Shown here piece after piece: positions 25,769-30,466 of a stretch of 36,902 bases of DNA; positions within the stretch are counted from its first letter, which is position 1; every line of letters begins with the position of its first letter. The notes under the pieces were generated by a model, which made no database searches, had not been told where the DNA came from, and was given only the letters and a program-made list of their open reading frames with translations. This stretch comes from a virus (lineage: Duplodnaviria > Caudoviricetes), in IMG/VR virus record IMGVR_UViG_3300032013_000004, positions 1 through 36,902 of that record; one strand, 5' to 3'. A program made the position numbers and the translations under genes.

Positions 25769-27148
25769 ATGAGAGTAGAACTTAAAAGCCTCCAGCCTAA
25801 CCCGATGCGCGATTTCACCGTTGATCCTATTGATGATGATCGCGTCAAGGAGTTGGCTGCGTCTATCAAGGAAGACGGTTTCTGGGGTGGCGTCGTTTGT
25901 CGTCGCACACATAACAACGGTATCCAGATCGCAGCCGGACATCATCGCATCAAGGCAGCGATGAAGGCAGGCATCCAAGAAGCCGATGTCTTCGCAGGTG
26001 ATCTCGACGACGCTTCGATGATCCGCATCTACGCGAGAGAGAATGCCCTTCAGCGCGGCAATACTGGAACAGCGTTGGCTGGTAGCGTCGCGGCAGCGAT
26101 TCGGTTTACAGCGAAGGCGGTTCTTACAGGGGGAGGATCTGAACAATTGTTCAGATCCTCCGATCTTGCAGAATTGCGAGGCAATCTTACCTCCGATCGA
26201 GGCTTGGGCCGCGACATCATTGTGCGCTTTCTCGATGGCGTCCCAGGTGTCACCGACCGCACTGTTCAAGAACAGCTCGCAAACCTCAAGTCATCAGGCG
26301 ACTACGCCCGCATCATCCGCGAGGTACAACAACAAATCGAGAAAGAAAACCAGGAGGCCCTGAAGGCGCTCGCTCGTGCCGAGGCCCAACAGAAAAAGCT
26401 TCAGGAGGAACGGGAGGCCGCTGAGGCGCGTCAGCGCGAGGCTGAGGAGCGTCGCAAGGAGGCAGCGAAGGCGGCACGCGCGGCCAAGGAGGAGGCCGAT
26501 AGGAAGCGTGCCGAAGCCGACGCGCAACGCGCCGAACTGGCCAGGCAAAAGGCTGAGGCCGAAGCCAAGCTTGCGGCTAAGCGCAAGGCGGAGGCCGACG
26601 AGCAAATGAAACAGTTCGATGCCCTCAAGAAAACCCGTGACACCGCCGAGAAGGCTGCGACAAAAGCCGAAGAGCGTGACAAGACTTTCGACTTTGAAGG
26701 CGTCGCCAAGTACCTCAAGAACTCCAGTCACATTGATGTCTTCCGTCAATTAGCCACAGGCGAAGGCGTCCGCCCATATCTGCCTGTTAATCAACAGGCG
26801 GCACTCGCCAAGGCGCTTGTCGATCTCGCGGGAGACGGCGAGCTAAGCGCACGGTTCATCCGTGAGAATTTCATGTCCCTAGTGATGGATGTGAAGCATA
26901 CCGAAAGGAGGTTTAACGCTGAGGAAAAGGCGGACCTGCTCAAAAAGGACTGGTCCGCCAAAGCGCGTGTTTATCAGGATGATATGGCGCGCAATGCACG
27001 AGGGTTTTTGGCTGCGGCGAGATCGCTCGCAGATCACGACAAGAACCGTCCGAGTGGAGTCACTCTGCAAGCTACCTCGGAATTTCGAACCGCAATGCAG
27101 AATATTAAACGGGCTGTGGCCCTTATCGAGAAAGCAGGTATTTTATGA
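25769..27148 (+). CDS. ParB/Srx N-terminal domain protein with long coiled coil
   Basis: 'L.PNP.R...ELAASIKEDG', GHHR box and 'EN..QR' CTP-binding motifs, putative HTH, then an Ala/Glu/Lys/Arg coiled coil of over 100 aa. Confidence 0.85.
   Translation: MRVELKSLQPNPMRDFTVDPIDDDRVKELAASIKEDGFWGGVVCRRTHNNGIQIAAGHHRIKAAMKAGIQEADVFAGDLDDASMIRIYARENALQRGNTGTALAGSVAAAIRFTAKAVLTGGGSEQLFRSSDLAELRGNLTSDRGLGRDIIVRFLDGVPGVTDRTVQEQLANLKSSGDYARIIREVQQQIEKENQEALKALARAEAQQKKLQEEREAAEARQREAEERRKEAAKAARAAKEEADRKRAEADAQRAELARQKAEAEAKLAAKRKAEADEQMKQFDALKKTRDTAEKAATKAEERDKTFDFEGVAKYLKNSSHIDVFRQLATGEGVRPYLPVNQQAALAKALVDLAGDGELSARFIRENFMSLVMDVKHTERRFNAEEKADLLKKDWSAKARVYQDDMARNARGFLAAARSLADHDKNRPSGVTLQATSEFRTAMQNIKRAVALIEKAGIL
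26132..26161. repeat. Perfect 30-bp palindrome within parB
   Basis: GGAGGATCTGAACAA|TTGTTCAGATCCTCC. Confidence 0.95.
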
Positions 27149-28514: not shown

Positions 28515-28813
28515 ACGAAACTAAAGCGGCAATCGCTGGCGGCTGGAAGGCTGTTGCCAAGGCGCTAGAGGCGAATATGAATGCGCTGCTGGAAGAGAAT
28601 CGAAAGCTACGCGCGGCGGTAGAAGCGTATCCAGAGTGGACGGACGATGACAACGGCGACAGCATAGGAACCATGCAGCGCTTCGTAACGTGCATAGTCT
28701 GCGACGGCGGCGGCGCGTTCAACGGCGACGGTAAGCCTAGCAAGAGAATGCCGCCAACACACAAGCCTGACTGCGCCCGTCAACTCGCCCTAAAACCGGA
28801 GGGAAGGGATTAA
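28511..28813 (+). CDS. Hypothetical zinc-binding protein
   Basis: CxxC...H..DC, ATGA overlap. Confidence 0.65.
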   Translation: MNETKAAIAGGWKAVAKALEANMNALLEENRKLRAAVEAYPEWTDDDNGDSIGTMQRFVTCIVCDGGGAFNGDGKPSKRMPPTHKPDCARQLALKPEGRD

Positions 28814-28815
28814 AA

Positions 28816-28844
28816 TTGCACCCTTCCCTGATTCGTGGCATTAT
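28816..28844 (+). promoter_or_regulatory. Promoter of membrane-protein operon
   Basis: TTGCAC-17 bp-CATTAT with extended TG. The -35 overlaps the GGGAAGGG/CCCTTCCC inverted repeat. Confidence 0.5.
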
Positions 28845-28997
28845 CCGCTCTGCACTGGTAGGCGAAAGGTTAAAGCTCTCGCCTACCTTAAACCAAATCG
28901 AACTTGGTACGTGCAGAGCGGTTTGCTTATAACCTGAGCCTGTTCAGTTTAGCAACCTTCAGCGCCTACCCGGTTCCCTTGACTAAAAGGGGACGAA

Positions 28998-29675
28998 ATG
29001 CAAGCCAAAAAAGAATCCATGCTTTCACAGCGCGGCTGGATGGCTGTAATCTTCATCGGCCTTTGGGGCTTCCTCTGCGCGTGGTCGCTCTCCGCGTTCT
29101 GGCAGCACATTGACAGTCTTCAGCCGACATACCGCATTGCCGCCAAAGCGGGCGCATGCGCTGGCGAGTTCGCCGTATTGGCGCTGACAGTGCTTAAATG
29201 CTTCAGCATCCATATCAACGTCCGCAAGTGGTCACTAATTCTCGCCTGCGCACTGGCCATTGTGATTGTGTTTCACACCGGCGCGCTGCGTGGACTGGAC
29301 GAAGCGGCAGTCGTGCAGGACGACAAAGAAAAACGCCTGCGCGATTCGCTTACTCAAATGAGCAAGGAGCAGGGAGTAGGCCGGACGCAGAAAGAGCGCA
29401 TGGCGACAGCCAACAAAGCAAACTCAAACGCGCAAAAACTTCTTGCGGACACCATCAACAAGCGAGACGAAGCCATTAAGGCGACTTCGTTCTTCCCGCT
29501 CTGGTATCTCAACGGCGGCATGTACGCTCTCATCATGATTGCGTCAATTCTGTGCCTTGGATTCGTCGGAATGAAGATGCTCAACAAGGAAGACATTGAC
29601 CGGGACTTTGACGGCATAGCCGACCACCTGCAGCAGCAGACAGAGGTTAATTGGCCAAACCAAGTGGGAAAATAG
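28998..29675 (+). CDS. Four-TM membrane protein with extracytoplasmic coiled coil
   Basis: Three N-terminal hydrophobic helices, coiled coil, fourth TM, DxDxDG motif. Ends GTG GGA AAA TAG. Confidence 0.85.
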   Translation: MQAKKESMLSQRGWMAVIFIGLWGFLCAWSLSAFWQHIDSLQPTYRIAAKAGACAGEFAVLALTVLKCFSIHINVRKWSLILACALAIVIVFHTGALRGLDEAAVVQDDKEKRLRDSLTQMSKEQGVGRTQKERMATANKANSNAQKLLADTINKRDEAIKATSFFPLWYLNGGMYALIMIASILCLGFVGMKMLNKEDIDRDFDGIADHLQQQTEVNWPNQVGK

Positions 29676-29711
29676 CAGCCGCCACGCACGCACAGGGACA
29701 AGCGATGGCGG
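29666..29711 (+). other. Predicted -1 programmed ribosomal frameshift signal
   Basis: X_XXY_YYZ heptamer G_GGA_AAA (29666-29672) in frame before the stop. Stem GCCGCCA-CGC...GCG-a-TGGCGGC begins 5 nt downstream. The -1 frame is open to 30349. Confidence 0.7.
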
Positions 29712-30349
29712 CGGGACAACCCGAACAGGAGGCGCAGCATGAGAAAGCGGCCACTCGGCCTGGTGTTCTGGATAACTTGGGCGCTAATCTGTCTGGCGCT
29801 GGCGGGCGTCCTGATGGTGAAGTAGCCGGGGAGCAGGAGGGAGCAATTGCCGCCGCTCCCCGGGGAGCAGAAGCCCACAGGGAGCAGAAATTACCATCGA
29901 ACGTTATCCGATTTGCTCCCCGGGGAGCAAAGAAGGCTAAAGCCTCGAAAGCAAAGGCAAAAAAGGCGGGAGCAAAGCGTGCTGGCTCCCCAGGGAGCAG
30001 AGAAACTAACTGGCTAAAATCTTTGCTCCCTGAAGCGGCAAACGGATGGTGGGACCCAGCGGAAGACGGCAAGGGTTATGTCATTCCTTTTCGCTGGCGA
30101 GAGGCTGGAAAACAGCGTAAGCTTCAGTTTCCGCGAATCAGCGCGGAGCAGTTTAAACGGCTAAAGGAGGCCACTAATGAGCGAGCAAAATTCCTTATCG
30201 CGGACCGCGTCTACGGACACATTGAAGACCTTTGCGCCCCAGGGAGCGCCCGCGCTGACAGAGCAAGAGCGGTTGCCCAGAGGGTCGGCTTTGCTGTTGG
30301 AAACAATCTTGATGTTGGCGCGAGAGATTCAGGTGTCAGACGGGCTTGA
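29672..30349 (+). CDS. -1 frame extension: low-complexity linker plus C-terminal globular (putative DNA-binding) domain; fusion ~450 aa
   Basis: The ORF has only a TTG start without RBS. C-terminal 'NWLKSLLP...GWWD...GYVIPFRWRE.GKQRKL.FPRIS' looks like a real basic domain. Confidence 0.65.
   Translation: MAAATHAQGQAMAAGQPEQEAQHEKAATRPGVLDNLGANLSGAGGRPDGEVAGEQEGAIAAAPRGAEAHREQKLPSNVIRFAPRGAKKAKASKAKAKKAGAKRAGSPGSRETNWLKSLLPEAANGWWDPAEDGKGYVIPFRWREAGKQRKLQFPRISAEQFKRLKEATNERAKFLIADRVYGHIEDLCAPGSARADRARAVAQRVGFAVGNNLDVGARDSGVRRA
29829..30030. repeat. GGGAGC(A) motif array
   Basis: GGGAGCA at 29829, 29839, 29863, 29880, 29923, 29968 and 29993. Inverted (T)GCTCCC at 29855, 29914, 29985 and 30024. 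Perfect palindrome TTTGCTCCCCGGGGAGCAAA at 29912-29931. Confidence 0.9.
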
Positions 30350-30437
30350 AGACGCGAAGGTTAAGGCCGGGAGCATCGCGGAAATGGCCGGTGAGCTTGT
30401 GCAGAAGTACAACCGGCAAATAGGGCTGGCTGCATAG
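30177..30437 (+). CDS. Small helical protein overlapping the frameshift ORF by 173 nt
   Basis: AAGGAGG six nt before the ATG, amphipathic C-terminal helices. Confidence 0.65.
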   Translation: MSEQNSLSRTASTDTLKTFAPQGAPALTEQERLPRGSALLLETILMLAREIQVSDGLEDAKVKAGSIAEMAGELVQKYNRQIGLAA

Positions 30438-30466
30438 TTGACACCCGATAGGCGCGACAGTACTAT
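30438..30466 (+). promoter_or_regulatory. Strong promoter (pR'-like)
   Basis: TTGACA-17 bp-TACTAT. Confidence 0.75.

Follow-up and report, generated by a model that had tools for sequence, protein, structure and literature searches.

In lambda gpG/gpGT and in OrfA-OrfB of the insertion sequences (IS) IS1 and IS3, a slippery heptamer near the end of the first open reading frame (ORF) and a stimulator 3' of it set the ratio of short to long product (PMC5009743, PMC4066793; here and below, papers are cited for excerpts only). Streptomyces SpdA2 influences segregational stability and binds a 12-bp palindrome located within its coding sequence (PMC4170104), Bacillus Noc binds specific sites (NBS) and recruits DNA to the membrane, itself blocking division (PMC4331003), and the phi29 membrane protein p16.7 organises membrane-associated DNA replication (PMC11476376). 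Here we describe a locus that resembles each of these in part, found in IMG/VR virus record IMGVR_UViG_3300032013_000004 (Duplodnaviria; Caudoviricetes), of which positions 1 to 36,902, hereafter the window, were analysed. At 28,816 to 30,437 the window carries a cassette of three genes, all on the + strand: ORF1, a four-helix membrane protein; ORF2, in the -1 frame, very probably joined to ORF1 by frameshifting; and ORF3, which overlaps the end of ORF2. A palindrome array lies inside ORF2. This anatomy is confirmed and is conserved in relatives. What the cassette does is less certain; we give about even chances to its fastening DNA to the membrane by a tether that frameshifting rations, and it possibly stalls host division. 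The X_XXZ_ZZN heptamer near the end of ORF1 and the 3' stimulator are shared with lambda gpG/gpGT and IS1/IS3, but the cassette differs in that its ORF1 product sits in the membrane and would gain a swappable, putatively DNA-binding domain. A tail-assembly chaperone pair of the G/GT kind was rejected, because the product is a membrane protein and the locus lies between the replication region and the terminase, with no major-tail or tape-measure neighbours.

A first-pass annotation of the window, made from its letters and ORFs alone, had proposed that a 225-amino acid protein with four transmembrane (TM) segments ends in a canonical slippery heptamer, that a hairpin follows 5 nt downstream, that the -1 frame runs on for 225 residues into a compact basic and aromatic domain, and that a third gene overlaps its end. 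All of these elements were found. ORF1 (28998..29675) encodes 225 residues with four hydrophobic segments and defines what we call family A. The heptamer (GGGAAAA, 29666..29672) stands in the register G_GGA_AAA with the TAG stop directly after it, and a predicted hairpin (29678..29712; -21.7 kcal/mol, z -3.6) begins 5 nt further on. ORF2 (29672..30349) is open for 225 codons and comprises a low-complexity linker and a folded domain.

Do relatives keep the slippery site, the hairpin and the -1 ORF, as the same annotation expected? The family-A set consisted of 36 loci, one being the window's own contig, after nine duplicates had been dropped; five further loci were left out as their ORF1 stop fell outside the available DNA. 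An in-register heptamer occurs 0-12 codons upstream of the ORF1 stop in 32 of the 36 (18 GGGAAAA, 10 CCCAAAA and 4 GGGAAAC), and at 70% identity the signal is present in 16 of 19 clusters. Control ORFs had a heptamer in 4 of 179 cases, two being family members, which leaves 2 of 177 unrelated ORFs, neither with a long -1 ORF. In the 32 heptamer loci the -1 ORF is complete and at least 130 amino acids long in 27 and runs off the contig in five. Of 31 family-A loci, 23 have a stem of at least 7 bp beginning no more than 8 nt after the heptamer, against 3.95 in shuffled sequences; RNAalifold applied to 12 slip regions gave no consensus fold, the sequences being too divergent to align. The -1 frame is under purifying selection: in the domain-coding part the ratio of nonsynonymous to synonymous substitution rates (dN/dS) is 0.15-0.21 in this frame and 0.96 and 1.84 in the other frames. 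Locus L025 keeps the -1 frame and lacks a canonical heptamer, and in seven further family-A loci, from metagenome-assembled genomes (MAGs), the heptamer is present in five, the other two being of a +1 type.

Might ORF2 instead be a gene of its own, with a start at 29651 or 29705, or might the frames have been broken by an assembly error, the heptamer being incidental? The first-pass annotation had seen no credible independent start in the -1 frame. That was too strict, since weak candidates exist at TTG 29651 (pairing with the anti-Shine-Dalgarno (anti-SD) sequence -6.4) and at ATG 29705 (-4.8, inside the hairpin), the latter being where the 214-residue database protein P0024 begins; the frameshift reading to which the claim belonged is otherwise upheld. 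The worry about an assembly indel at 29666-29672 is allayed by contigs from runs X1, X3 and X6 (three studies), which span the slip site without one. Membrane part and domain are, moreover, fused in frame in nature, at locus L017 and in database proteins (P0016, P0036, P0038, P0040, P0054, P0106, P0109 and P0114 among them). The domain of P0114 matches the -1 ORF of L050 (E 4e-25), and in L129 membrane helices are followed, in the same frame, by the domain of the window itself. A separate gene or an assembly error would also leave the heptamer unaccounted for, not just in family A but in 23 of 25 chromosomal loci described below and on a third membrane family, and we find this explanation barely credible. 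An in-frame X_XXZ_ZZN heptamer, a 3' structure and a conserved coding -1 ORF are all present, as in known frameshift signals. Because of the conserved heptamer, the stem, the dN/dS values, the indel-free contigs and the natural in-frame fusions, the case for programmed -1 frameshifting between ORF1 and ORF2 is strong, and we hold it with high confidence. No RNA dataset carrying the cassette was found among the runs listed; run X19 covers 29667-29843 only and may be DNA.

In a second class, ORF1 has Ser/Pro-His-stop at its end and the domain lies in the +1 (-2) frame without a heptamer (loci L022:2126, L051:4817, L055 and L057; proteins P0033, P0059, P0073, P0086, P0091 and P0102). In L022 and L051 ORF1 ends Ser-His-stop and a related domain follows in the +1 frame; TGA is the stop in the four loci that were read. 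Recoding here possibly depends on a non-canonical signal with a period-2 C pattern. A search for proteins of greater length yielded nothing beyond the L022 protein in a mis-started copy.

The linker DNA has a second layer of information. About 11 GGGAGC(A) motifs had been noted in it; the repeats are there, but the count was approximate and their palindromic nature was missed. The cassette has eight GGGAGCA, one further GGGAGC and four reverse GCTCCC motifs, and in the window these are the half-sites of palindromes of 14-20 bp. The array (29829..30030) has full sites at 29855-29868, 29912-29931 (a perfect 20-bp palindrome) and 29985-29998, and half-sites at 29829, 29839, 29880, 29968 and 30024; a fourth, degenerate palindrome (30234..30247) lies within the overlap of ORF2 and ORF3. 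The sites occupy two reading frames. Most loci have their own repeated linker site, usually a palindrome of 12-20 bp that is nearly absent from the flanks. Shuffling of synonymous codons gave significantly fewer palindromes (p<0.05) for 17 of 30 loci; the window has 3, against 0.5 after shuffling (p 0.015). Since the symmetry is kept and the sites are uniform within a locus, selection appears to act on the array DNA itself. Two other uses of the sites were considered. Scattered host targets are unsupported, the window's site occurring in just one cassette of one of five host genomes and that of L008 in 0-3 imperfect copies. That the array is the parS of a phage ParB is weakened by two records, both incomplete, that carry the same array and in which the window's ParB-like gene was not found.

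Could the palindromes work as RNA, the domain binding its own messenger, with feedback to frameshifting, to decay or to the translation of ORF3? The helix-sheet-helix order of the domain is like that of RNA-binding folds, and very weak Foldseek rows name dsRBD, Pur-alpha and Whirly-type chains. None of these rows is significant, however, the first palindrome lies about 180 nt from the slip site, and loopless palindromes of 12-20 bp, such as these, are the usual form of DNA sites for dimers. We consider an RNA role very unlikely.

Array, domain and ORF3 together form a swappable module (29827..30435), in whose place near-identical phages have an unrelated one. Locus L003 follows the window at 98% identity as far as 29826, departs from it in array, domain and ORF3, and meets it again at 30436. 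Runs X3 and X6 show the swap at the same junctions, X3 carrying both alleles, and in the tree of the membrane proteins the loci that share a domain type do not group as a clade (approximately unbiased test, p-AU 6e-7). ORF3 (30177..30437; 86 amino acids) has a strong Shine-Dalgarno (SD) sequence (anti-SD pairing -11.6); its position and its own SD are conserved in most loci, it has no significant Pfam or PHROG family, and it is probably the domain's cognate partner or regulator. A downstream promoter-like site (30438..30466; 10/12 match) lies just outside the swapped segment. Across loci the array goes with the domain, and it does not track the membrane protein. Thus L070 shares domain (64%), palindrome and heptamer with the window and has an ORF3 56% identical to the window's, but its membrane protein belongs to an unrelated four-TM family, which we call family B; L006/L072 and L003/L066 are further cross-family pairs that share site and domain. 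In the 12 loci that have at least three sites, half-sites of 6 bases agree at 4.5 positions where the two domains compared are related, against 2.6 (p 0.0014), so that repeat and C-terminal domain co-vary, in line with the original prediction.

A swap of this kind also recalls polymorphic exclusion or toxin-immunity modules, in which the membrane carrier would be conserved, the C-terminal effector, aimed at competing elements, would vary, and ORF3 would be the cognate immunity protein. The N-terminus is indeed constant while the variable C-terminus and the overlapping small gene swap together, both alleles are held by run X3, and the leader may repress translation. Such a module would leave the arrays unexplained, though; the chromosomal copies described below are highly conserved and not diversifying, and neither Pfam nor PHROGs gave a significant match to a toxin or exclusion family (PADLOC was not searched). 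We judge it decidedly unlikely.

Two side observations concern the same design. L066, L068, L130, L132, L127 and L135 represent further distant membrane families with the slip-plus-domain arrangement, and in L062 (G186) a 68-bp perfect palindrome lies 50 nt downstream of an in-frame membrane-domain fusion.

The C-terminal domain (29996..30301) consists, by AlphaFold and alignment, of a helix, a three-to-four-stranded sheet and helices (mean predicted local distance difference test (pLDDT) 83). It is basic, with a net charge of +9 over 29972-30346, and Trp-rich. ORF2 has no significant Pfam or PHROG family. Foldseek rows for arm-type integrase chains (3rmp, 3jtz and 3ju0) are weak, at E 0.4-0.8; a VIA search gave a best Z of 3.9 with no significant fold match, and the ESM Atlas gave nothing above 0.81. 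The topology, a three-stranded sheet on a helix, fits the arm-type integrase/AP2-like fold without significant structural similarity. At L134:1066-1785 a window-type domain stands behind a MUG113/T5orf172 domain and has no membrane anchor; MUG113/T5orf172 domains pair with DNA-binding modules. Because of this fusion, and of the basic beta-sheet/helix model, we predict that the domain binds DNA, and it is reasonably likely that its targets are the array palindromes. Iterative profiles tie the window's domain to only 7 of 37 domains. In the linker, NVIxF and LRVV-like motifs recur in 27 of 54 cases, against 3.6 in shuffles (for example at 29905-29920 in the window); we take them to resemble the tails of ClpX-binding adaptors.

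Of 401 Blastocatellia genomes, family B matches 52, with strong hits in 42 and mostly a single copy. (Tallies over the 401 genomes include the unpublished genome G245, which is used for no other claim.) In the 25 best loci the canonical heptamer is present in 23 and the -1 frame is open for more than 100 codons in all 25; 23 have a conserved terminal domain and a conserved overlapping ORF3. The 1.5-kb flank contains lexA in 13 of the 25, the cassette coming after lexA, and a DinB-family gene is downstream in 15. Scanned more widely, seven regions have the synteny of housekeeping genes: glmM and cdaA occur in three of them, lexA in four. In sequence the chromosomal domain corresponds to the -1 ORFs of the family-A phage loci L008, L048, L040, L049 and L028 (E 2e-10 to 3e-4), but not to that of the window; its profile has no PDB sequence match. 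The design is thus common to chromosomal and phage cassettes. Since the chromosomal copies mostly lack arrays, a cis array cannot be essential to this design. The lexA-linked counterpart, as judged from gene order, points to a role in the cell cycle or in DNA damage. Genes for membrane division inhibitors adjoin lexA elsewhere (PMC6851548), and in this YneA, SosA, ChiZ and DivS are like the family-B cassette, a likeness that does not apply to the phage locus; those proteins and SidA, however, are small, mostly single-pass and with an extracellular C-terminus, and no frameshift or DNA-binding extension is reported for them in the excerpts used. Between lexA and the family-B gene, upstream of the latter, there is a conserved structured non-coding element (L084:1150-1260, also in L073-L077, L081, L088-L090, L092, L094 and L095) with no Rfam match. 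Upstream of lexA in L116-L121 a TTTCGGT direct repeat with an 11-nt period lies over the promoter and is a candidate Blastocatellia LexA box.

How might the parts work together? Most ribosomes would stop at TAG and yield the four-helix membrane protein, and a minority would slip at G_GGA_AAA and add the linker and the basic beta-sheet/helix domain on the cytoplasmic side. The rarer long form would then bind the array inside its own gene and fasten phage DNA to the inner membrane, membrane oligomers offering paired domains to the two-fold symmetric sites. ORF3 would probably regulate its cognate domain, and block exchange of array, domain and ORF3 would give each element a private address. We give about even odds to phage DNA being tethered in cis in this manner. 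The likeliest purpose would be Noc-like, the membrane-DNA complex holding DNA and delaying host division, although a division-blocking role, suggested by analogy, is itself only a tentative proposal. Noc is a ParB-like protein, and ORF1-3 gave no ParB match, hence no sign of the ParB CTPase of Noc and ParB-parS systems. Noc has, besides, an amphipathic helix and scattered chromosomal sites, whereas the cassette would use an integral anchor and the window's site is not scattered in five host genomes. In phi29 p16.7, which has a single anchor and binds non-specifically, no frameshift, array or swappable module is known. More speculative, and somewhat doubtful, is a system spanning Blastocatellia and their phages in which frameshifting rations exchangeable DNA-address modules onto unrelated anchors: the array-less host copy behind lexA would be a DNA-damage division checkpoint, and phages would pin their own genome, stall division and swap addresses to avoid cross-talk with co-resident elements.

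Several findings weigh against this interpretation. Thirteen of the 30 loci have no significant palindrome excess, one domain group has direct repeats in place of palindromes, and several MAG loci, like most of the chromosomal family-B copies, have no array. Co-variation of site and domain can arise from linkage or descent alone. Foldseek found nothing for the domain at E 0.001 or better. The lexA link rests on family B, which is unrelated to the window's membrane family; the chromosomal domain could not be joined to the window's (hidden Markov model E 2.5, hhalign probability 4.7%), and no LexA-box-like repeat was found in the phage cassettes. The heptamer itself, G_GG.A_AA.A, was called inefficient in earlier E. 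coli work, although the same source, in the part cited, lists it in IS elements and places V_VV.A_AA.R in the efficient class (PMC4066793).

The array could also belong to a membrane-anchored transcription regulator, the long form using it as an operator or roadblock on its own operon, on ORF3 or on the promoter at 30438, with tethering incidental. It does lie inside the operon, some 450 nt upstream of a strong promoter-like site; one G003 site copy is about 500 nt from the other two, and the leader of L070 has, by eye, a site-like insert. Yet the sites are mid-gene and none covers a promoter, the neighbourhoods vary among loci and offer no constant downstream target, and the chromosomal copies manage without an array. 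We therefore rate regulation unlikely as the main function, and prefer a membrane tether.

The third comparison is with Streptomyces SpdA/SpdA2 and its sps site, likewise a palindrome inside the protein's own coding region. SpdB2 is four-TM, oligomeric, pore-forming and DNA-binding (PMC4447253), and SpdA, which binds the palindrome in its own gene, interacts with it (PMC4170104, PMC4447253). By this token the cassette might serve DNA transfer or spreading, its four-TM protein forming an oligomeric pore with the adaptor for the element's DNA built in, and four MAG or metagenome loci do adjoin an integrase. ORF1 likewise has four TM segments and a coiled coil, but the coiled coil of SpdB2 is N-terminal, so the order differs. 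No DUF2637 or other Spd-related Pfam match was found with 23 members at E up to 0.5 (profiles were not compared with SpdB2), and no FtsK/TraB-like neighbour among 51 flanking ORFs scanned. The window site differs from the sps 12-mer, the domain is a predicted transframe extension and not a stand-alone protein of 117-163 amino acids like those of Streptomyces plasmids, and the host is probably from Blastocatellia, which we presume not to be mycelial. In the excerpts cited, SpdA and SpdB2 are separate genes with one conserved site for all plasmids and no frameshift reported; in the cassette the sites differ from locus to locus, and anchor and binder are one predicted transframe protein. A transfer function strikes us as highly improbable, and a membrane tether remains our preferred reading.

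Each ingredient of the cassette has a precedent, none of its three proteins has a family match, 50,697 GenBank phages gave no match, and nothing relevant to this architecture was found in open-licence PMC and bioRxiv; as a combination it is probably undescribed. If the frameshift reading is right, this is a new class of programmed frameshift in bacteria and phages, neither tail chaperone, capsid nor transposase, and conserved on host chromosomes. About a dozen natural domain-palindrome pairs with an unclassified fold would provide a set for working out DNA-recognition rules and for building orthogonal membrane tethers, and the chromosomal copies are a candidate DNA-damage division checkpoint in a major soil lineage.

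The hydrophobic segments of ORF1 span residues 16-34, 53-71, 79-97 and 177-195 approximately, with a helical hairpin (coiled coil) between TM3 and TM4; the charge distribution suggests a cytoplasmic C-terminus. ORF1 (anti-SD pairing -7.8) has no significant Pfam, PHROG or PDB match, a fold search with the membrane model gave no clear match, and the ESM Atlas returned unnamed viral clusters only. An invariant DxDx[ND]xDG motif at 29590-29625, 3' of TM4 on the predicted cytoplasmic side, presumably resembles a Ca-binding loop.

The first-pass annotation also gave the cassette its own promoter and a structured leader of about 150 nt. A sigma70-type promoter is plausible by eye (28816..28844: weak -35, 17-nt spacer, extended -10; 3/6 and 4/6 consensus matches with an extended TG), but a consensus scan did not call it. 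An inverted repeat at 28800-28829 runs across the end of the preceding gene and the putative -35 box. The leader (28845..28997) does fold, at z -4.6 over 28846-29000, and its hairpin at 28973-28994 covers the SD; hairpins of like kind are seen by eye in many relatives, and there is no Rfam match. The statistic for SD sequestration is weak (ORF1 0.46 unpaired, mid-range among 28 window genes) and does not establish that the leader represses translation. One stem arm of the window's leader has two alternative partners. By eye, a possible antisense promoter occurs in the window (28850-28960, - strand) and in the leaders of L032, L034, L007 and L021, with a reverse-strand terminator upstream, which suggests antisense-RNA control.

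The window is a complete virus record of 36.9 kb with direct terminal repeats. It represents a complete temperate phage, podovirus-like as judged from its head and adaptor genes, with genes for an integrase, a replication initiator, a ParB-like protein, a terminase, a portal and a major head protein; the cassette lies outside the tail genes, between replication/recombination genes and, on the terminase side, packaging genes. ORF1 homologues were found in MAGs titled Blastocatellia or Blastocatellales and in 12 of the 401 Blastocatellia genomes (some matches being weak), and a phylum sample of 301 genomes had one in the centre genome only. Because the homologues concentrate in this way, the host is probably a member of the Blastocatellia, which are soil bacteria. 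The record of L051 (G003) is titled Heliobacteriaceae yet was drawn in the Blastocatellia class sample, and its title is probably wrong. Elsewhere in the window, a 30-bp perfect palindrome (26132-26161) lies within the ParB-like gene, and two AGATCT-centred palindromes (23089 and 23132) lie within the replication initiator gene.

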